This document shows positions 38,595 through 64,000 of a stretch of DNA of 64,000 nucleotides, one piece after another. Made by a program: the position numbers and the translations under genes. The stretch lies in IMG/VR virus record IMGVR_UViG_3300027747_001027, positions 3,806 through 67,805 of that record, one strand, 5' to 3'. Each line of letters opens with the position of its first letter. Positions within the stretch are counted from its first letter, which is position 1. Under the pieces are notes generated by a model. The model had not been told where the DNA came from and did no database searches. It was given only the letters and a program-made list of their open reading frames with translations. The stretch is from a virus.

Positions 38595-41515
38595 TATATT
38601 TCTCTTGATGATATTGTTGCTGTGACTGCTGTAACTTTAACAAATCCCCATTTATAAAGTTCTACATCAGCAGACATTAAGAATTGACCAGTTGGAAATA
38701 TTGATGGTTTCGTGGCTTTTAATAAAGGAGGATTAACTGATAATGCTGGTTTTAAAATCCCCTTACTATCTGATACAGTATTAATTTCTTTAATATTTAT
38801 TGAAATATCTGAATGCATTGTTTGCGGAACAAGTATTGAGTTTGCATTTACATTAACATCAAAAGATTTTCCTTCTCCAGTAGAAGAAGCAAAGCCATTA
38901 ATACCAACTGATTCAGATTTTGATTTAGAATTTGATAATGACCTACCGCCTGTAATCAAAACAATATTTTCTGTTTTTGTTTTAATATATGGCCATTTTA
39001 AGTATGTTTCAGTACGAACAACCTCTTCGCCTTCTACTGGAGAAGTAATTGGTCCTGTTCCAAATTGAGCAAATATATTTAAACGGTTTAATATTGATTC
39101 AGATTTAATTTGACCATTTACCATTTGAATGAAAAAAATGTGTTTAAATCCTTCTACTTCTCCATCAAATCCATTTTCTATTTCAAAGTAAATATCTCCA
39201 CCAATTGACCATGACGATTTAGATGAACCGGAATTGCTCATGTTATATGATCCAGTATTAGCTCCTTCAGATATATTAAAATCAGTTCCAGCGCCATAAC
39301 TATTTGCAACGTAGCAAGTTGTTGATAAAAGTTTATCTGGTAGTTTTACTCTTACCTGTATTGGAACTTTATAATATTGATTTAATAGCGCTTCCTTTAC
39401 TTTGTCTATATTAATTTTTTTCTTAACGCTTTTCCATTGGTCTATTGCTTTATACTCTGTATTTTGTAACTTAATCCATGATGGTGTATCTTTATATTCA
39501 GTAGGTGATACAATCGTTTCTTCATAATAAATTCCTATTCCTAATTGATCATCGTAATCAACGCTAACATTTTCAGGCCACTCGTTTACCCTAACCAACT
39601 CTCTTTCCGATTTAGTTTGATCTAGTCTGTTTATTGAATCTTTAACTATATTTAAACCTAAATTTACATCGCTTGTTGGCCCTGTATCTGAATCAACTAT
39701 TGACTTTTCAACGCTTGCCTCAACCAGTCCAAGTTGTGATTCAATAAGAGTATTAGAAGATAATTTAATTGGACCATATGATTGTACTGTTGTTTTTTTT
39801 GCTTTTGTTGCAGAAATTGGCTCAACAGATGATTCAATAATTCCGATATTTCCATCCCATGTTAAACTATCTGGACTTGCTGGATATGCTACAATTGAGT
39901 CCGTAACTAAAGTCCTTCCAAGCAACCCAGACGATGCTTTTCCTCCAGAAAGAATAGCCCTCGCAGGAACTGTAATTGTTGTTTTTTTAGACTTTGCTAT
40001 ATCAATTGGTTCTACTTCACTTGATATTGTATTTACAGAATCTGCATCTGGAGAAGAATTAGCGGGAACAATACTTTCATTAACTGTTTCAATTTCCCCC
40101 CTTTGATTTATTCTTCTTCCAGAAAGAGTTGTTGGCCCACTTGAGGAAATTGTTGTTTTTTTACTTTTGGCTGAATCAATTGGAGTTATTAAAGAAGAAA
40201 CAATTGTGTGAGAAAGATTGTCTGGATTAGTCCCAACTGGAACGATTTCTTCAATAACATTAGTCTGTCCAAGTAATCCATCTTTATTCTGACCTCCTAA
40301 TAATGATGATGGTCCGGTTGATGTTACCGTAACCTTCCTGCTCCTTACCGAGTCTATTGGATCAACTTGAGATGAGATAACTGATAATGACAATGCATCG
40401 GCAGAAGCGCCAGCGGCAACAATTCTTTCTGTTGTTGACTTAATTCCAAGTAAACCTTGTTCATTTTGATTTCCAGATAAAGTCGGAGTGCTATTTAAAA
40501 CAACATTAGTTTTAACAGCCTTACCAGAATCAACTTGATTAACTTCACTTGAAAGAATTGTTGAACTTGGTGAATCTGGATTGGTATTTGGAGCAACGAT
40601 ACTTTGCGTTGAAATAACATCACCGAGCAGCTTCCCATCTTTTGACTTTTTAGAAAGACTAGAGGGTCCAGTAGATGTAGTTGTTCTTTTTATAGCCTTT
40701 GTTGCTGATGTTTGTTGAACAATTGAAGCAACAACGGATTCGGATAATGCATCAGGTTCAGTTGATGGGACTACAATATCATCAGTTGTAATTGTTTCTC
40801 CAAGTAGCCCTTCTTTTTTTTCTTTTGTAGAAAGAGTTGAATGCTTTTCAACAGATGATGTTGTTTTTACACCCTTACTTACATCTTCTTGAATTACCTG
40901 TGATCCTGTAATAAAAAGTCCGTCAGGAGTTGGCTCGGTTCTTGGATAAACAGTTTGAGTGTTTATACTCTCCAAATCTCCACGTTGATTATATCTTTGC
41001 GAAGGAACAATTGGTCCAGGCAATGTTTCAAAAACCCTTGTTACGGTGATATACTTTGAATCTAATGCGCCTTCATTGCGAGTTGTAGCTTCATCTGTAA
41101 GAAATGCATTGGGAAACATTGTATCTGGAGTAAGGTAAACAAATGGGGAGTATGTTTCTCTGGGTACAATATATGTCCTTGTGTAGATTGGATGCTTCTG
41201 AGATCCGGAGCTATACTTGATAGCATAGTTGTAGCTGTCTTGGTTTACTCTATCATTCGCCCAGATACGTTTCACCCACTGCCCATCCTCGCTCGAAACT
41301 TGTTGGAATACTAGCTTATGCTCTGGGAAGCTACCTTGCTGTGATCCGTGCGGTACACTATCCCACATTGTTCCATAATCTAGCTTCTTGTAATCTCCCT
41401 TCCACGCATTCACCACTTCAGTAATGATGACATCATCTATTACCGGAGTTGGTAGTGATTGAATCCCCTTTGCTGGGGCTGGATTCATTGCGTTAGTTGT
41501 TTTAATTGGCTGCAT
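38594..41515 (-). CDS. tail-associated protein with ~60-aa Ser/Thr-rich repeats
   Basis: Repeated GLLG...IV....PD.LS..I.SS.V.PIDS.KSKK.T. Confidence 0.7.
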   Translation of the reverse strand: MQPIKTTNAMNPAPAKGIQSLPTPVIDDVIITEVVNAWKGDYKKLDYGTMWDSVPHGSQQGSFPEHKLVFQQVSSEDGQWVKRIWANDRVNQDSYNYAIKYSSGSQKHPIYTRTYIVPRETYSPFVYLTPDTMFPNAFLTDEATTRNEGALDSKYITVTRVFETLPGPIVPSQRYNQRGDLESINTQTVYPRTEPTPDGLFITGSQVIQEDVSKGVKTTSSVEKHSTLSTKEKKEGLLGETITTDDIVVPSTEPDALSESVVASIVQQTSATKAIKRTTTSTGPSSLSKKSKDGKLLGDVISTQSIVAPNTNPDSPSSTILSSEVNQVDSGKAVKTNVVLNSTPTLSGNQNEQGLLGIKSTTERIVAAGASADALSLSVISSQVDPIDSVRSRKVTVTSTGPSSLLGGQNKDGLLGQTNVIEEIVPVGTNPDNLSHTIVSSLITPIDSAKSKKTTISSSGPTTLSGRRINQRGEIETVNESIVPANSSPDADSVNTISSEVEPIDIAKSKKTTITVPARAILSGGKASSGLLGRTLVTDSIVAYPASPDSLTWDGNIGIIESSVEPISATKAKKTTVQSYGPIKLSSNTLIESQLGLVEASVEKSIVDSDTGPTSDVNLGLNIVKDSINRLDQTKSERELVRVNEWPENVSVDYDDQLGIGIYYEETIVSPTEYKDTPSWIKLQNTEYKAIDQWKSVKKKINIDKVKEALLNQYYKVPIQVRVKLPDKLLSTTCYVANSYGAGTDFNISEGANTGSYNMSNSGSSKSSWSIGGDIYFEIENGFDGEVEGFKHIFFIQMVNGQIKSESILNRLNIFAQFGTGPITSPVEGEEVVRTETYLKWPYIKTKTENIVLITGGRSLSNSKSKSESVGINGFASSTGEGKSFDVNVNANSILVPQTMHSDISINIKEINTVSDSKGILKPALSVNPPLLKATKPSIFPTGQFLMSADVELYKWGFVKVTAVTATISSREI

Positions 41516-42462: not shown

Positions 42463-43343
42463 TAATATCTTTCTACAAGTTGAGTAAGTTGATCTACGCT
42501 ATACTTTAGTTTTCGTAAATAGCAGTCCGCTCTAGCCAATGCAATGCAAATATGCTCATCTTTAGCATGAAGAGTTTTCCCTTCTATTTTGATCATGTAT
42601 CCAGACAATGGCTTTTTGTCAGAAACTTGTATGCTTTTTTCTGAGAAAGAAAACTTCAACCTACCATCATGGCAGTATGTTGCATTGTCTCGTTCGTATA
42701 TGCAATCAAATGCATATAGACATGTTTCAACTATGCTGGGAACTCGTAATGCGTTTGCAATGGCATTAGGTGAGCTTTGATTGCCAATGAATATGGATGA
42801 TGCTGCTATAGCTTCCGCGACATCGTATAGGTCTATTGTGTGCAAATGCTCAACTCTTCCGAACTTTTTACAAAAGTCTTCGTGCTCTTCTTTATGCCCA
42901 ACGAACATTATGTCATCCGCGAATGCATTCACGATCTCCAGCCAAGGAAAAAATTCTCCATGCCACCTTGCACCTCGGCTTACGACTATCTTTCCAGAAG
43001 CATAGTTGTTTTTTCCAGACTTGATCCACGGTTTGCTCAGATCAATCTTAGCACCAACCCACCTTGCTACTCGGTTAGCAATATTGTCACCATAGACCAT
43101 CCCTCCATTCCGGTATGTGGAAAGATCGACATCTATCTTCTGTCCTTCGTGTTTACTCACAGAAATTCCTTGCGCCTCTATCAGCCTCGCAAAAGATCCA
43201 ATGCGATTCACGATTGGTTTAGTCCATGACCTATCACCGACATAAAGTGTGGTAACACCTAGTGCCTGCATAGTTGGAATTGAATAGATAATATCTCCGA
43301 TGCAGCCGGAATGAAATGCGTTCATGCTTTTATTGTTAAACAA
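42462..43343 (-). CDS. GT9-like glycosyltransferase (paralog of 20989..21939)
   Basis: HSGCIGDIIYSIP, FIGNQSSPNAIANAL. Confidence 0.7.
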   Translation of the reverse strand: MFNNKSMNAFHSGCIGDIIYSIPTMQALGVTTLYVGDRSWTKPIVNRIGSFARLIEAQGISVSKHEGQKIDVDLSTYRNGGMVYGDNIANRVARWVGAKIDLSKPWIKSGKNNYASGKIVVSRGARWHGEFFPWLEIVNAFADDIMFVGHKEEHEDFCKKFGRVEHLHTIDLYDVAEAIAASSIFIGNQSSPNAIANALRVPSIVETCLYAFDCIYERDNATYCHDGRLKFSFSEKSIQVSDKKPLSGYMIKIEGKTLHAKDEHICIALARADCYLRKLKYSVDQLTQLVERY

Positions 43344-43385
43344 TACTGGAAGAAATTCAAGGTGATTTTTCTTTCAAGAAATAAT

Positions 43386-43421
43386 TTGACTTGTTGAAAA
43401 TAGTGTATAATATTTTCAACA
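43386..43421 (+). promoter_or_regulatory. promoter TTGACT-N16-TAATAT overlapped by an 11-bp inverted repeat
   Basis: TGTTGAAAATA-N8-TATTTTCAACA. Confidence 0.55.
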
Positions 43422-43428
43422 TCTTATT

Positions 43429-43510
43429 TGAGTTGTCAGAAAACTCATAATGGTAATTTTCCTCATGGTCAAAACCCGTCTTGATATTCTGACTATCAAG
43501 GCGGGTTTTT
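43429..43510 (+). promoter_or_regulatory. two hairpins with complementary loops; the second is terminator-like
   Basis: Loops GTCAGAA and TTCTGAC; 16-bp stem followed by T-run. Confidence 0.65.
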
Positions 43511-43958
43511 CTTTTAGTATGAAGCCTAACGGCAGTTCCCTCAAAAGAGCCTGTAAGATGAGCGTAGCACGGCGGGGTTCTATCCCCTGACTATGGAGAA
43601 TACCTGTAAAGGACTCCCGTGTGAAGGAGAGGGGTTGGGAGGGTTAAAAGACTACCAACTTAAAACGCTGTTTCCGCAGGGAGGCAGACTGCGAATCAAG
43701 CTGGCTCTCACTGAAAGGTGTAAACTAAAGTAAGCCTCGGTTAAGGACGACCTCTGGGCGAGTGATTCTAAAAATGCATACGATGGCTCCATACGAGGAA
43801 GTAATGTGTTTAGCAGTTTCTTTCCATAGGAACTGCTATGCTCCGATCTCACCACCAAAGAAGCATTGTATTATATACCCTATCAAACCCAATAACCACT
43901 ATATCCTACTAAGATATACCTTGTCGGATATAAGAAACATGATACAATTTAACGAACA

Positions 43959-45080
43959 ATGAAACACCGATTCCACGTATTGTCACTTCCTCACACCGTA
44001 ACTAGCAAGGAGTTTAACGCTTGCGCGTACACGCAAAAAGTATTAAAATTCTCAAAAATGATGACCGAGCGAGGTCACGAAGTTATACACTACGGACATG
44101 AAGACTCTGATCTACAATGTAGCGAACACGTCACCGTACTTACCAATAACGACTTTCGAGAGAGCTATGGGTCACATGACTGGCGCAAGACCTTTTTTAA
44201 GTTCAATACCAACGACCATGCGTATCGTAAGTTTTACGACAATGCTATCCGTGAAATATCCGTACGGAAACGGAGTCACGACTTTATCCTGCCCTTCTGG
44301 GGTTCTGGCGTACGTCACATCTGTGATGCCCATCAAGACTTGATTTGCGTTGAACCAGGCATTGGATATGCTGGTGGACACTGGGCTAGGTGGAAAGTTT
44401 GGGAGAGCTATGCAATCTACCATGCTTATTGTGGGCTTAAGAATGTTGGTCAGTGCAATCAAGATTGGTATGACGTTGTTATTCCAAACTATTTCGATGT
44501 CGAAGATTTTGACTTCAATTCTGCCAAAGAAGATTACTTTCTCTATCTTGGCCGAGTATATAACGGAAAAGGAGTTGATATTGCCATCCAAGCTACTGAA
44601 CGAGCAGGCGTGAAGCTGGTCATTGCCGGACAGAAAGAAGAAGGATACAAGCTTCCTAACCACGTTGAATATGTAGGCTACGCAGACGTTCCAACGAGAA
44701 AGAAACTGATGTCTAATGCCAAGGCATCGTTCCTACCAAGTATGTATGTAGAGCCATTCGGTGGAGTCCAGATCGAGAACCTACTATCCGGCACTCCTAC
44801 GATTACTACAGACTGGGGTAGCTTCGCGGAAAACAATCTACATGGAATCACTGGCTATCGCTGTAGAACGATGGGCGACTTCGTGGATGCTATCAAAAAC
44901 ATTTACCGGATAAACCCATACGATTGCCGTAAGTTTGGCGAGAACTTCACATTGGAAAAAGTAGCTCCAATGTATGAAAAGTATTTCAATGATGTCATGG
45001 ACGTGTATACTGGTAAGGGCTGGTATGCAGATGGACATAACATTGACGCAATGACACGATTCTACCCCAGCATTCACTAA
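43959..45080 (+). CDS. glycosyltransferase family 4
   Basis: YLGRVYNGKG, EPFGGVQIENLLSGTPTITTDWG. Confidence 0.9.
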   Translation: MKHRFHVLSLPHTVTSKEFNACAYTQKVLKFSKMMTERGHEVIHYGHEDSDLQCSEHVTVLTNNDFRESYGSHDWRKTFFKFNTNDHAYRKFYDNAIREISVRKRSHDFILPFWGSGVRHICDAHQDLICVEPGIGYAGGHWARWKVWESYAIYHAYCGLKNVGQCNQDWYDVVIPNYFDVEDFDFNSAKEDYFLYLGRVYNGKGVDIAIQATERAGVKLVIAGQKEEGYKLPNHVEYVGYADVPTRKKLMSNAKASFLPSMYVEPFGGVQIENLLSGTPTITTDWGSFAENNLHGITGYRCRTMGDFVDAIKNIYRINPYDCRKFGENFTLEKVAPMYEKYFNDVMDVYTGKGWYADGHNIDAMTRFYPSIH

Positions 45081-47046: not shown

Positions 47047-47292
47047 ATGAGTAAAGAGAAATTATTTGAATATTACCTAATTAAAAATCCATCTCTTGTT
47101 AATCAGCTTGTAGATGGAAAGGTTGTAATGTCTGCAAATGGATTCAAGAAGTTCTTTGATACGACATATGATGTGGCGTATAAGGAAGGAATACACGATG
47201 AGTCGTATACAAACGAACTCCCGCCTAATAGGACAACGACTCAAGACTCACAGGGTTTAAAGGATCTTTTAAATCTTTTTGGAATGCATTGA
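47047..47292 (+). CDS. hypothetical protein (MSKEKLFEYY...)
   Basis: ATG start; ends LLNLFGMH. Confidence 0.55.
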   Translation: MSKEKLFEYYLIKNPSLVNQLVDGKVVMSANGFKKFFDTTYDVAYKEGIHDESYTNELPPNRTTTQDSQGLKDLLNLFGMH

Positions 47293-47316
47293 CATCATTT
47301 CAAGTTCCTCTATAAT
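47289..47316 (+). promoter_or_regulatory. sigma70 promoter TTGACA-N16-TATAAT
   Basis: Perfect hexamers, 11 nt upstream of the dnaB ATG. Confidence 0.75.
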
Positions 47317-47327
47317 CGAACTCGACT

Positions 47328-48599
47328 ATGGAAAAACAACTACCATCCGATATGGGTGCGGAGCAAGGCTTGCTTTGTTCCTGCATACAAGACACGCGAA
47401 TCATTGGCAAGATAGCCGATATTATTACCCTGGAGCACTTTAATACTCCAGCACACCAAGACATCTGGGCAACTATGCTCAATATGTACTTTGAGAAAAA
47501 ACCTATAGACTTGTTAACAATAACCTCGGAATTGTGCGCATCCAAACTCCTTGATGGAATTGGTGGCGAGCATTACATCACGCATGTCTGTACTGTTGTC
47601 TATTCATCTGCAAACTGGGATGAGTACTTGAAGACGATCTGTGATTGTTATCTCCGTAGAAAGATACATTTTGCTGCAAAGCGTATGGCTATTGACGCTC
47701 TTGATAGGTCAATTGATCCAGAAGAGTTAAAGGAAGAGGCTAGCCGCGAGATAACCGGAATGATGACAACCAAGACCGAATCCGTCCATATAGCTGAAGT
47801 ATTCAATAAGCGCATTACTGCATGGGAAGAAGCAGCGAGAAGCGGTGGCGCTATCAATCGCGGACATGACTCATGTTTCCACAAGTGGAATATGTCAACG
47901 CGAGGATTCCGACCACAGACAGTTCATATCATCGCTGGACGTGCCAAGCAGGGGAAGACAACAGCCGCACTCCAGATGGTAACGACTCCGGCTATCGACA
48001 AGAATGTTCCAATTGGCATTATCTCGCTTGAGATGGGCGCTGGTGAGTTGGTAGATAAGATCACATCCTGCCATGCTCAGATTGGAATGAACGACCTTAG
48101 AGACGGTAAGCTAAATCGCGCTGACTTTGCCAAGGTATCTAACTTCATGGCGCAAGGAATGAAGGCTCCGATCCACATTGTTGATGAAGCATCGATGACT
48201 GTGAACCAATTCAGAGCCAGGGCCAGAAGGCTGGTAGTAGAGAATAAGTGCGAGATCATTATGCTCGACTACGCCCAGCTTGTAACTCCAAGCAATATGA
48301 AGGAAAGCAGGGAGCGTCAGGTAGCTGAGATCAGCCGCATGACGAAGATTATATCTAAAGAGTTGAATGTGTGCGTAGTTCTTCTCGCTCAACTCAACGA
48401 AGACAACATGATCCGTGAGAGCCGGACGTTTGAGATGGACTGCGATAGCCTAACAAAAATTATGCCAGTCGAGGAATCTGATGATCCATACGCATACGTG
48501 CTACACGTTACACACAATAGGAATGGCACTACTCCAATTATTCCGCTTAAATTCCACAAGCATATGGCACGTCTGGAAGAATCGATTGTAGAGCAATAG
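47328..48599 (+). CDS. dnaB: DnaB-like replicative helicase
   Basis: AEQGLL N-domain, AGRAKQGKT, SLEM, LDYAQL, LAQLN, RES. Confidence 0.92.
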   Translation: MEKQLPSDMGAEQGLLCSCIQDTRIIGKIADIITLEHFNTPAHQDIWATMLNMYFEKKPIDLLTITSELCASKLLDGIGGEHYITHVCTVVYSSANWDEYLKTICDCYLRRKIHFAAKRMAIDALDRSIDPEELKEEASREITGMMTTKTESVHIAEVFNKRITAWEEAARSGGAINRGHDSCFHKWNMSTRGFRPQTVHIIAGRAKQGKTTAALQMVTTPAIDKNVPIGIISLEMGAGELVDKITSCHAQIGMNDLRDGKLNRADFAKVSNFMAQGMKAPIHIVDEASMTVNQFRARARRLVVENKCEIIMLDYAQLVTPSNMKESRERQVAEISRMTKIISKELNVCVVLLAQLNEDNMIRESRTFEMDCDSLTKIMPVEESDDPYAYVLHVTHNRNGTTPIIPLKFHKHMARLEESIVEQ

Positions 48600-48760: not shown

Positions 48761-48833
<73 letters not shown>

Positions 48834-61119: not shown

Positions 61120-61376
61120 TGTGTGTGTTTATTGTGTGTGTTGGTTGCAGAGTGGGCAGATTGTGTAGTCCAGTTGGCTTGCCCGTTTCCAAACGGAAAT
61201 TGTGAAGATGAATAGCAATGCGATTGCTGTCATTAGAAGGAACTCTTTCATTTGTAAAGTAAGCTAAGAACTAAAATCTTGAATTCATTCCAGACTAGCT
61301 GGCAGATGTAGTATTCGCGCTTTATGTAAAGCCATGCAAGTTTTAGGTGTCTCATGTGTTGGGTTTGATTGTATCA

Positions 61377-62447
61377 CTAAAATTCTATTGGACTATTATT
61401 ATTTGATTCGCATGGAGTGTTGTTATTAGATTCGCGCATATTGTTGTATTCCACCCACCATCTGACATCCATTGAGGGTAGGTATTCACACCATTCATCC
61501 GGTCTATTCTCTGTAACCCAAGTTTTGAATGATTGTTTGTCTCCACGTTCTTCACAGACATCGTACCATTGCCTCTTTCTTTGCGCGAGGTTGGCGTTAA
61601 ACTGCGTTTTATAGGCGGTCTGCTGTGATGGTATTGATTTAGTAGTTAGATCATCCTCCCAGCGTCTTCCGTTGATCCATGTGGCGGGATGTGGAATAAA
61701 CTGAGGATCTGTCCAGAGCTTCATTTGTTTCTGAAGTGATGGCATGACTTCTGAGAGAACACACTTTTGTTTCTTCCATGCTTTCTCTGAGTTTGCTTTA
61801 GAAACCTTGCGAGGGTAGGTGGAGTAGAAAGTTTCAAAGTCTGAATCTGAATTTCCACTATACGACTTTTCCGTGGGGTGGACTTGTTCGCTGCTGTTGC
61901 CTGCATCTTCAGAATTGTTTTTAGAACATTCACTACTCTCTGCATGAGTCTCTGTATGATTCTTTGTTATATTAGAAACAATAGACACGCGTGCGGATCG
62001 TCCATTTTTTGCCACATGGTCTGGCAAATCTTGGAGCATGGCATCTGGCAAATCTTGGAGCATGCCCCCCCATGTGGAAGAATCTTCCAGATGGGTAAAT
62101 TTGTCACTTGAGAGAACACTTTGAGCTATCTGACTAACAGTATAATACTTCATAGCCTTGCCTTCCTTGATGTCCAATTGCGATGATTTTACAAGCCCCA
62201 TTGATTCCAGCGCACGTAATACATCAGCTATAGTTCTTTCGCTCCAGAATGGAAAAAACTCTTCACGCCACCCCTTGTAGCTATTGTATATCCACCTTTC
62301 ATCATCCAATAATCTTCCGCATCTTTTGTTTCCGCAAAGGTAATGTAACGTCTGGAGCGCGATAGCTTCGTTCAGTCCAATTATTTTGGCTAGGCTTGGC
62401 TGAAACACCATTGGCGTTTCATCAATTAATAAATTTGATTTACTCAT
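61377..62447 (-). CDS. replication initiator protein
   Basis: LAKIIGLNEAI.LQ wHTH; FETFYSTYPRK...FIPHPATWINGRRWED. Confidence 0.85.
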   Translation of the reverse strand: MSKSNLLIDETPMVFQPSLAKIIGLNEAIALQTLHYLCGNKRCGRLLDDERWIYNSYKGWREEFFPFWSERTIADVLRALESMGLVKSSQLDIKEGKAMKYYTVSQIAQSVLSSDKFTHLEDSSTWGGMLQDLPDAMLQDLPDHVAKNGRSARVSIVSNITKNHTETHAESSECSKNNSEDAGNSSEQVHPTEKSYSGNSDSDFETFYSTYPRKVSKANSEKAWKKQKCVLSEVMPSLQKQMKLWTDPQFIPHPATWINGRRWEDDLTTKSIPSQQTAYKTQFNANLAQRKRQWYDVCEERGDKQSFKTWVTENRPDEWCEYLPSMDVRWWVEYNNMRESNNNTPCESNNNSPIEF

Positions 62448-62463
62448 AATATGAGGGGCCGCC

Positions 62464-62635
62464 GCCTCTCCCCGCAGAAAGACCGATAGAATGTCGGGTG
62501 AAGAATTACGGAGAGAGGCAAGCGATATGTTTATGTTTTAGTTCTGATTTAATCTTTCTTACACGTCTGTTCTTCACGCAGACGGCTGTATCTCTACAGC
62601 GGATTGAACACTACACTGCCTGAGTGCAGAGTCAA
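62464..62635 (-). promoter_or_regulatory. promoter plus two hairpins with complementary loops upstream of the initiator
   Basis: TTGACT-N16-TAGTGT; loops GTGAAGAA and TTCTTCAC. Confidence 0.65.
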
Positions 62636-63143
62636 CTATTGTTTAACAATATTTCAATCTTTGGAACAATCTTCCCGCACTTCTTGCACACGGCATTGTT
62701 AGTTCCGAATAGAAACTGGCACTTGTGCGTTCCCCCAATCTTAGCGGTAAAGCCAACCCTTCCTACGCCCCTAAGACTGCCAAGTGATCTGGCTCCTATT
62801 GCTCCTGATCCAATGTTAAAGGATCGATGTGTATTGCTTGTACTCATAGTGTGTATTTGAGAGTTCCCGATTTTATGTGATTACGGGAATGGATATCTGT
62901 TGACCAGAGATTGCTTGCCAAGGCAACACCCCCCGCCACAATACCACGTTATTGCTCTCAAAATTAGTTAAAGCTCGTATCCTCCGTCCTCACGCAGCAG
63001 TGCGTAGGCTTCCATTAACTTCTTAGTAGCTTGATCTACCCAGTCCATGCAAGCCGTGCGATCCGGCTTCTTGTAGTCGGTGATTGCTAAAATAATGTCG
63101 GTCTTGGCTGACTGAAGTGCAAGCCATACTTTTTGTTCGTTGT

Positions 63144-64000
63144 TCATTTTAGTTTCTCCAATAGGGTTAGAAAAGCTCTGGTTGCTGTTGCGGGGACGAC
63201 TCCATTGCCGAGCAGTCGGAGTTCATCTGTTCTGTTTCCAATTGAGGTAGCTTCCATATAGCACCCCCTCTCCCATACCGCTTGGTCAAGAGAGGATCGC
63301 CATACTTTTTCCATCTCTGGTAATGCTTCAGACAAAGCCCATGACCTTTCGCTGGCTTCTCGCACACCTTGCACGATGCTCTTTTTTTCCACGGCATCTT
63401 GCCCTCTTTCCAATGCAATTTCGTATGACAACTGGCACATAGCGTAACCAAGTTCTCTTTGGAATTGTTCAGTGGGTTTCTGTCCTTGTGATGAATCCCC
63501 AAAAGTTTCGTAGACCCACATTCCGCGCAATCCCCAGCCTTTAACTTCGTGGCTCGTTTGTATGCACCAGACAAAGTAACAGATTCTTTGAGTAAATGAG
63601 TCCAACTGCATTCCCGACTGCAATATTTTCTCCGCAAGAAAACATTGTAATCCTCTATTCGTCCATTGAATCTCTTGCGCGATAGCTTCTTTCCACACGC
63701 TAAACAGAACTTCTCTGGCTCTAATTTTCTTGGATATATTCTCATGGGCATACACATTATGCCCATAGGGATTCAATGTCAAGGTTTGACCCAAAAAACT
63801 GGAATATTCATTAGAGTGCAAACCCACCTGGCATTCAATTTCGCCGAACTCGGAGGCATTGAACCTTTCACTTTCTCGTTTTCGTGTAGCACTTGGCTCT
63901 GAATCGGCTTGTGTAGGTTCACTCCCTTCTCCGTCTGTTGGTATTCTGCTCTTTTCGTCCATTGCTCCGTGTTCTCCGGTGGCTGGAAACAAAAGCTGTT
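63144..64000 (-). CDS. C5 cytosine DNA methyltransferase alpha chain, C-terminal part (begins outside window)
   Basis: Motif X: RTDELRLLGNGVVP. Confidence 0.75.
   Translation of the reverse strand, partial: QLLFPATGEHGAMDEKSRIPTDGEGSEPTQADSEPSATRKRESERFNASEFGEIECQVGLHSNEYSSFLGQTLTLNPYGHNVYAHENISKKIRAREVLFSVWKEAIAQEIQWTNRGLQCFLAEKILQSGMQLDSFTQRICYFVWCIQTSHEVKGWGLRGMWVYETFGDSSQGQKPTEQFQRELGYAMCQLSYEIALERGQDAVEKKSIVQGVREASERSWALSEALPEMEKVWRSSLDQAVWERGCYMEATSIGNRTDELRLLGNGVVPATATRAFLTLLEKLK
63167..63751 (-). CDS. HNH endonuclease nested in an alternative frame
   Basis: CLACGK...KYCSREC; CAECG...IHHKDRNPLNNSKENLVTLCASCHTKLH; GLCLKHYQRW. Confidence 0.85.
   Translation of the reverse strand: MPMRIYPRKLEPEKFCLACGKKLSRKRFNGRIEDYNVFLRRKYCSRECSWTHLLKESVTLSGAYKRATKLKAGDCAECGSTKLLGIHHKDRNPLNNSKENLVTLCASCHTKLHWKEGKMPWKKRASCKVCEKPAKGHGLCLKHYQRWKKYGDPLLTKRYGRGGAIWKLPQLETEQMNSDCSAMESSPQQQPELF
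63779..63991 (-). CDS. methyltransferase beta chain (motif IX) in an alternative frame, partial
   Basis: Hand-translated ...GVNLHKPIQSQV...KLNARWVCTLMNIPVFWVKP*. Confidence 0.65.
   Translation of the reverse strand, partial: CFQPPENTEQWTKRAEYQQTEKGVNLHKPIQSQVLHENEKVKGSMPPSSAKLNARWVCTLMNIPVFWVKP

Follow-up and report, generated by a model that had tools for sequence, protein, structure and literature searches.

On the minus strand of a 64,000-nucleotide stretch of viral DNA (the window; bases 3806-67805 of the 67.8-kb IMG/VR record IMGVR_UViG_3300027747_001027, which is estimated to be 99% complete), a gene for a 356-residue replication initiator (61377-62447) is preceded by a leader for which comparison with relatives gives good support as one conserved structured RNA, a double pseudoknot with six covarying helices, two of them pseudoknots. 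Positions 62445-62635 are best read as an early promoter, flanked by a candidate operator and followed by the complete 5′ untranslated leader of the initiator mRNA, approximately 155 nucleotides long from its putative transcription start site. All positions below are those of the window, and features of the leader are on the minus strand unless stated otherwise.

Fold and covariation of the initiator leader

The 171-nucleotide leader stretch folds at −51.5 kcal/mol, as compared with −38.4 ± 4.2 kcal/mol for shuffled sequences (z-score −3.16; 1 of 200 shuffles was as good). Read 5′ to 3′, the fold opens with hairpin H1 (GCUGUA-GAGA-UACAGC, 62585-62600), which has six base pairs and the GNRA tetraloop GAGA at 62591-62594. 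The adjoining hairpin H2 (62564-62584; CGTCTG[CGTGAAGAA]CAGACG in DNA, CGUCUG[CGUGAAGAA]CAGACG in RNA) has the 6-base-pair stem CGUCUG/CAGACG and a loop of nine nucleotides, namely a C followed by GUGAAGAA. The latter, the whole loop minus its first base, is strand a (62570-62577), the 5′ strand of the first pseudoknot helix (PK1). Four nucleotides 3′ of H2 lies strand b (AGAAAGA, 62553-62559), the 5′ strand of the second pseudoknot helix (PK2), followed at 62526-62552 by the conserved UUAAAUC (62546-62552) and an A-rich, variable, single-stranded linker. The long closing helix P3, of about 16 base pairs, is formed by 62507-62525 and the G-rich strand 62459-62475. It encloses strand a′ (UUCUUCAC in RNA, TTCTTCAC in DNA; 62498-62505), the small hairpin P4 (CCGA-CAUUCUA-UCGG, 62483-62497), which sits in the internal loop of P3, and strand b′ (UCUUUCU, 62476-62482). 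Strand a′, the 3′ strand of PK1, abuts P4 with no spacer, and strand b′, the 3′ strand of PK2, lies directly 3′ of P4 and runs into the 3′ strand of P3. The remaining 62448-62458 comprises a C-tract (CCCC, 62455-62458) and a short A/U-rich spacer with no Shine-Dalgarno (SD) sequence, and leads to the ATG start codon of the initiator at 62445-62447.

Classical H-type pseudoknots have a short first loop and no second loop, which permits coaxial stacking of the two helices. PK1 follows this rule, as bases of the H2 loop pair with a downstream strand, one free base lies 5′ of strand a, strand a abuts the 3′ strand of H2 and strand a′ abuts P4, leaving a first loop of one base and no second loop. 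The layout speaks for pairing within one molecule. The duplex energies of the two pseudoknot helices are modest (−8.5 and −5.7 kcal/mol). The P4 loop (UUC...) could also touch the linker (...GAA), a third contact that is compatible with some sequence classes and not with the CAAUCAA class.

Relatives were gathered by a protein-seeded search, which returned 14 viral loci, 13 of them with sequence upstream of the gene, and the same leader was found in 11 of these 13. Ten of the protein-seeded leaders were aligned (alignment A1), and RNAalifold applied to A1 recovered H1, H2, P3 and the inner hairpin P4, with compensatory changes in 12 of 32 pairs. A covariance model (R1) was built from A1; within the window it identified no second copy of the leader, the next best matches scoring 11 and 6.6 bits. 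Initial pattern scans with 15 specified bases were discarded as too unspecific, since the matches arose mostly by chance. Further members were collected with a pattern anchored on P4 and the linker; it retrieved 33 stretches from viruses, 41 from metagenomes and 4 from genomes. The variable positions of PK1 and PK2 lay outside this pattern. R1 accepted 69 of 79 sources, rejecting all four genome stretches and six metagenome stretches, and the accepted sources reduce to 44 distinct leaders, on which the following counts are based.

In the nested helices, 98.8% of 1393 cells are paired, as compared with 31-46% in slid controls, and 25 of 32 pairs change on both sides, which none of 500 shuffles reached. 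Both-side changes occur at all six pairs of H1, where 98.8% of cells are paired, and in 14 of the 16 modelled pairs of P3. H2 is paired in 100% of cells with compensatory changes at four of its six pairs, and one P4 pair flips from A-U to U-A in three distinct leaders. The H1 tetraloop, read off the aligned list, is GNRA in 42 of the 44.

The long-range helices covary as well. Positions 1-7 of PK1 are canonical in all 44 leaders, and contiguous Watson-Crick pairing extends over 7.18 positions on average, whereas none of 2000 permutations of the partners exceeded a mean of 4.95. Six main variants account for this pairing: GUGAAGAA/UUCUUCAC, GUAGAAA/UUUCUAC, GUGGAAA/UUUCCAC, GUGAGAA/UUCUCAC, GUGAAACC/GGUUUCAC and GUGAAGC/GCUUCAC. 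In PK2, seven nucleotides that end in AAGA before UUAAAUC generally pair with seven nucleotides that start with UCUU directly 3′ of P4. Positions 1-6 are canonical in 43-44 of 44 leaders with one clear exception (locus L261), positions 5 and 6 each show at least three pair types, and the mean run of 6.27 compares with a maximum of 5.05 in partner permutations. An automated count over both pseudoknot helices, which is affected by eight rows aligned out of register, gave 95.4% paired cells as compared with 84.1% in shuffles and 42-58% in slid controls, and 95 cells changed on both sides as compared with 30.1 in shuffles (0 of 500). H1, H2, P3, PK1 (between the H2 loop and strand a′) and PK2 are shown by this covariation to be real conserved RNA helices.

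An earlier note on this DNA had described several of these features, and all that it named are present on the minus strand: the TTGACT-N16 promoter, GCTGTA-GAGA-TACAGC at 62585-62600, the CGTCTG hairpin, the long stem, the 8-nucleotide complement and the ATG. The loop-to-distal pairing that it proposed is the conserved PK1. It had placed the complement in the loop of the long stem; the partner indeed lies within that stem, in the internal loop directly 5′ of the inner hairpin and not in the terminal loop. The account was partial, as PK2, the GNRA tetraloop, the enclosed P4 and the conserved distance between fold and start codon are additional here. That the pattern exceeds chance follows from covariation in the 44 relatives and not from the window sequence by itself: a descriptor of a 5-base-pair hairpin with a loop of 6-12 nucleotides and a complement of at least 8 nucleotides lying 20-150 nucleotides downstream had 10 entries in the window, as compared with 4.3 ± 2.7 in 20 dinucleotide shuffles.

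That the window pattern by itself lies within chance, and that operator-like palindromes occur in the region, would suit a DNA-level element (an origin, an operator array or a cruciform) or chance hairpins without RNA function. However, U-G pairs are common in the leaders, in 40 of 44 at the base of P3 and in 16 of 44 at another P3 pair, and since these would be A-C mismatches on the opposite strand, it is the sense-strand RNA of the gene that folds. Such strand-specific pairs, together with compensatory changes in six helices over 44 distinct sequences, make this already disfavoured alternative extremely improbable. Additionally, iteron-like repeats, the possible marks of an origin, sit inside the initiator gene instead.

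Promoter, initiator gene and neighboring sequence

The leader is preceded by a sigma-70-like promoter (62608-62635) composed of TTGACT at 62630-62635, a 16-nucleotide spacer and TAGTGT at 62608-62613. A consensus promoter scan did not call it, the −10 element matching the consensus at only three of six positions. Among the related leaders, 42 of 44 have a TTGAC-type −35, a spacer of 16-18 nucleotides and TAnnnT, with the −10 ending 6-9 nucleotides 5′ of H1; hence almost all of the 5′ untranslated region is structured RNA. At its other end the leader tails start C-rich (CC, CCC or CCCC) and continue A/U-rich. The distance from the end of the fold to the aligned start position is 9-15 nucleotides in all 44 leaders, with no SD sequence between, and the codon found there is ATG in 43.

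These two ends bear differently on the possibility that the leader is directed at RNA polymerase or at mRNA decay, by factor-independent antitermination of the put kind or by protection of the 5′ end from nucleases. The put RNAs of phage HK022 mediate factor-independent antitermination and lie just downstream of early promoters. In agreement with such a role, the leader RNA starts at or beside the transcript 5′ end and heads an early operon in which the initiator gene is followed on the same strand by genes for a PD-(D/E)XK nuclease, an ERF recombinase and SSB, and the other early promoter of the window is also followed by a structured RNA (leader 1, below). Nevertheless, the short distance kept between fold and start codon speaks for the region of translation initiation, a search of 61300-64000 for terminator-like sites was negative, and stabilization of the mRNA would require no more than a simple hairpin at its 5′ end. 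We consider this explanation unlikely.

Just 5′ of the −35 lies the palindrome TATTGTT-A-AACAATA (62637-62651, minus strand), which may act as an operator and is a candidate binding site of a phage regulator. The identical 15-mer also stands 5′ of the leader-1 promoter (43331-43345), and with up to two mismatches the window holds 19 strand-matches at 11 sites, as compared with 0.25 expected. Several relatives keep the palindrome ahead of the promoter. The window promoter spacer contains the imperfect inverted repeat CTGCAC-N7-GTGTAG. Promoter spacers (62614-62629 in the window, minus strand) differ among relatives, with the inverted repeats CTACAC-N7-GTGTAG, TGTCAC-N8-GTGATA and CCATCTGATATGG, which suggests different repressor specificities ahead of the same RNA leader. 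A further structured and conserved stretch, located 5′ of the promoter region at 62850-62965 (minus strand; fold z-score −2.91), has a closing helix UUGAGAG/CUCUCAA and a hairpin UCCCG-N14-CGGGA, for which the compensatory variants CCUCG/CGAGG and CUCCG/CGGAG occur in relatives. Between this stretch and the operator, the window contains an open reading frame of 71 amino acids that belongs to no known family.

The initiator protein matches phrog_270 (replication initiation protein, 1.2e-24) and phrog_6493 (DnaD-like, 2.6e-21), and a Pfam search with the 356-residue protein gave no match. The same leader is common to initiators with at least 10 unrelated N-terminal domains, and the junction between shared and unrelated sequence falls exactly at the ATG (loci L098, L068, L258, L081, L114, L289, L293 and L290 compared with the window). 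This arrangement indicates that origin-binding domains are exchanged as modules while the regulatory RNA ahead of them stays the same. Replication-initiator, O-like or DnaD-like families are matched by the window protein and by 8 of the 10 other representative N-terminal types (L096 and L256 are unmatched), so the element does stand directly upstream of a replication initiator, as had been noted before. The gene itself carries two exact 21-nucleotide direct repeats, 24 nucleotides apart (62020-62064), which encode a repeated MLQDLPD and are present in four copies in L003. These repeats are iteron-like and suggest an origin inside the initiator gene; the origin of phage lambda is likewise located inside the initiator gene O.

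The phage probably infects a picocyanobacterium, and translation in this host probably does not require SD pairing. The first part of this assignment rests on the window glycosyltransferase (43959-45080, plus strand), which shares about 70% identity with its counterparts in Synechococcus phages, S-CAM7 and ACG-2014f among them; such phages account for 51 of the 52 records matched. For the second, an SD-like 4-mer lies upstream of only 15 of 61 crude window open reading frames. Among isolated phages, no DNA similar to 61300-63200 was found, and protein searches gave only distant relatives at or below about 30% identity. A scan of 151 cyanobacterial genomes and one further genome with R1 did not find the leader, a result that says little, as no positive control is possible. 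Elsewhere in the window, a consensus promoter TTGACA-N16-TATAAT (47289-47330, plus strand) ends 11 nucleotides before the ATG of a DnaB-like helicase gene, whose mRNA would be almost leaderless.

Possible action on initiator synthesis

On the basis of a fold that abuts the start codon at a conserved distance and heads a gene of the initiator type, we favor a cis-acting structured leader that gates translation of the initiator, possibly in response to a factor or ligand, and we regard this function as about evenly balanced between right and wrong. The folded leader would act in cis on the initiator gene. Most likely it would set the readiness of ribosomes to initiate at the AUG, which lies right beside a very stable helix locked by the pseudoknots, and the leader may additionally respond to a cellular factor or small molecule in the manner of a riboswitch. 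Sequestration of an SD sequence by the G-rich strand of P3 was rejected, as the spacing is 14-17 nucleotides and most genes here have no SD sequence. Upstream open reading frames of at least five codons are absent in 9 of the 44 leaders and vary in position and length in the others, and the 23-codon GUG frame of the window is not conserved.

Several observations weigh against this interpretation. Within the leader, no alternative (switching) pairing was found, nor was a ligand or protein partner, and the leaders share no conserved pairing with the start codon region; a small CUCAU/AUGAG hairpin at the start region is present with one initiator type only. The leader is dispensable for some relatives, since at L008 and L011 the initiator gene follows directly after another open reading frame and has no leader. 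Other points concern the covariation itself. The search pattern fixed most of P4, UCUU and UUAAAU, so that conservation there is partly by construction; TTAAAT was demanded by the pattern, and the conservation of UUAAAU is independent only in the ten protein-seeded leaders of A1. The 44 leaders are interrelated and their alignment was fitted to the model, so that the shuffle controls overstate independence. For the pseudoknot helices, further pair types numbered 15 as compared with 16.8 in shuffles and were reached by 494 of 500, and the number of pairs with both-side change was marginal, being reached by 13 of 500.

The variability of PK1 and PK2 raises the alternative that the leader acts in trans as a specificity RNA. 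In this view the 5′ domain (H1-H2-b) would use strands a and b to base-pair with a′ and b′ on initiator mRNA molecules other than its own, having been released by a cut in the A-rich linker or transcribed from another genome in the same cell. It would thereby define immunity or incompatibility groups, as do the same-strand antisense RNAs c4 and CI and the loop specificities of RNAI in I-complex plasmids. Among relatives there are 9 a/a′ and 18 b/b′ sequence combinations in 16 joint classes, and cross-pairing between most PK1 classes amounts to only 2-5 contiguous pairs. L295 and L278 share the same P3 and P4, and their 3′ halves differ only in a′ and b′. According to PMC10724649, one change in the loop is enough to alter the compatibility of I-complex plasmids. 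However, in leader pairs of 80-90% identity the rate of change at the variable sites of PK1 does not exceed that of ordinary stems (0.142 per site, as compared with 0.143 in the H2 stem and 0.148 in P3), and in the closest leader pairs it is only 0.002 per site, and equal rates are what structure-preserving drift gives. The loop layout of one base and no base corresponds to the needs of an intramolecular H-type pseudoknot. The targets lie 30-50 nucleotides upstream of the AUG and not over it, and neither a terminator nor a conserved processing signal is found 3′ of b. The Rfam C4 model finds no match, and there is no conserved antisense promoter: none was seen in the window, and the other leaders have weak, non-consensus matches only. 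A trans-acting RNA is thus quite unlikely.

The same low standing applies to a more elaborate version of this idea, a two-part address system in which the 5′ domain would read the 3′ domain (a′-P4-b′ in P3) by means of two independent short helices and the 16 joint combinations would be functional specificity classes in trans; we give it little credence. If true, it would be an RNA-only incompatibility or immunity code among co-infecting or resident phages that apparently infect cyanobacteria, in which the address class would decide whether one relative can control initiator synthesis in another or the latter evades that control.

Comparison with known RNA systems and with leader 1

A search of the whole window with Rfam 15 at gathering scores identified only a transfer RNA at 48761-48833, and region 62380-62700 gave no match at E ≤ 10. 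The C4 model (RF01695) likewise had no match at E ≤ 10 in the genome of the window. We found no description of this leader in the literature, although a prior listing is possible in an IMG/VR catalogue of 8495 automatically predicted "DNAVirus_X" motifs, some of them at most 25 nucleotides upstream of genes (PMC10690425). Those motifs come from the same source collection and are of the same kind, namely covarying intergenic RNA, and the pipeline, as the main text describes it, dealt with nested structures of up to 151 nucleotides. That main text names no initiator-associated motif; the supplementary lists could still include the leader. Within this scope, it is well supported that the leader is a new structured RNA that matches no catalogued Rfam family.

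The nearest functional analogue is the rep leader of I-complex plasmids (ColIb-P9 repZ, IncB and IncL/M repA), in which a hairpin loop pairs with a distal sequence 5′ of the start and controls translation of the initiator (PMC4705826). The likeness consists in an initiator mRNA leader with a hairpin loop and a distal partner upstream of the start, which here is PK1, and this loop-to-distal pairing is the only one of the four defining features that the present leader shares. The distal CGCC of the plasmids lies beside the SD sequence and is buried in an inhibitory stem, whereas strand a′ is free in an internal loop 40-50 nucleotides upstream of the AUG and no SD sequence is present. In the plasmids, translation of a leader peptide exposes the distal partner and an antisense RNA (Inc RNA or RNAI) competes for the loop; here neither a conserved upstream reading frame nor a conserved antisense promoter is found. 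The plasmid pairing comprises 4 base pairs, as compared with 7-8 base pairs here and a second long-range helix.

A further comparison is with c4 of phages P1 and P7 and CI of P4. These same-strand antisense immunity RNAs are located in the leaders of early operons and contain short stretches that can pair with sites further downstream in their own transcript; the stretches covary among heteroimmune relatives. The present leader resembles them in having segments complementary to downstream segments of its own transcript, and differs in that the targets do not lie over a ribosome-binding site, the loop geometry is intramolecular, no processing signals are seen and the C4 model is unmatched. Gene 32 of phage T4, likewise a DNA-replication gene, has a 5′ leader pseudoknot through which its translation is autoregulated (PMC10690425). 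There a simple pseudoknot is the nucleation site at which the gene product binds its own mRNA, whereas the present leader is shared by initiators whose N-terminal domains are unrelated, and this speaks against its recognition by the encoded protein.

In topology, the leader recalls the Pistol ribozyme (RF02679) and the SAM-II and preQ1 aptamers, in which a loop pairs with the 5′ strand of an internal loop, the first loop has one base, helices stack coaxially and the element lies near a start codon. It is three times larger, its counterpart of the strand cleaved in Pistol is base-paired, and it has no Rfam match. Of the marks of a riboswitch, a conserved compact fold beside the AUG is present, and an alternative pairing was not found. 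The Pistol-like topology, in which two helices flank an internal loop whose 5′ side pairs with a hairpin loop, and the crossing a-a′ and b-b′ helices reminiscent of the nested double pseudoknots of hepatitis delta virus (HDV)-type ribozymes, could also mean a self-cleaving ribozyme or a site of RNA processing. The GNRA tetraloop together with the two tertiary helices suggests that the RNA is compact and globular, and phage genomes commonly contain small ribozymes. However, the only match of the Pistol model in the genome lies away from the leader and below threshold (13.7 bits against a cut-off of 34.5, at G000 40162-40218), and the 3′ side of the internal loop, where Pistol cleaves, is fully paired here as PK2. 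HDV-like ribozymes moreover have a spacer for the catalytic base, and there is none between P4 and b′. Self-cleavage is very unlikely in our view.

The earlier note had regarded the initiator leader as the second instance of a design also found in leader 1 (43386-43515, plus strand), where a strong promoter, TTGACT...TATAAT, is followed by a hairpin and an intrinsic terminator. The part of this claim that stands is loop-to-loop complementarity: the hairpin GAGUU[GUCAGAA]AACUC (43430-43446) has a loop complementary to UUCUGAC in the loop of the terminator (43472-43515), and the two loops covary in three relatives (GUCACAA/UUGUGAC, GUCGGA/UCCGAC and AUCACAG/CUGUGAU, as compared with GUCAGAA/UUCUGAC in the window). 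The fold z-score of leader 1 is −4.06. The architectures are not the same, since leader 1 consists of a hairpin and an intrinsic terminator loop and the initiator leader of a double pseudoknot without a terminator. Downstream of leader 1, an open reading frame-free stretch and then the glycosyltransferase gene follow, with no replication gene. Pairing between leader-1 RNA and the initiator leader, in the window and three relatives, was no better than in 36-45 of 200 shuffles. Leader 1 could be a small RNA or an attenuator. The 443-nucleotide stretch without a long open reading frame behind it (43516-43958, plus strand) is 78-90% conserved in related phages, with a fold z-score of only −0.69, and Rfam searches on 43516-43958 gave sub-threshold matches only.

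The broader proposal that such leaders form a class of orthogonal RNA switches is weakly supported and not favored. The variable sites of PK1 change no faster than the stems, PK1 sequence class is not tied to initiator type, and no alternative pairing was found by which the leader would switch between two states.

The initiator leader can readily be probed, placed in reporter assays and subjected to structure determination, and its two short variable helices provide engineering handles. The amount of initiator decides when and how often a phage or plasmid origin fires, and control of the initiator at the RNA level is classical in plasmids and, to our knowledge, little described in phages. If the leader merely throttles translation, it would be a compact example of start-codon control without an SD sequence. 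If it senses a factor or ligand, phage DNA replication would be tied to a host signal.

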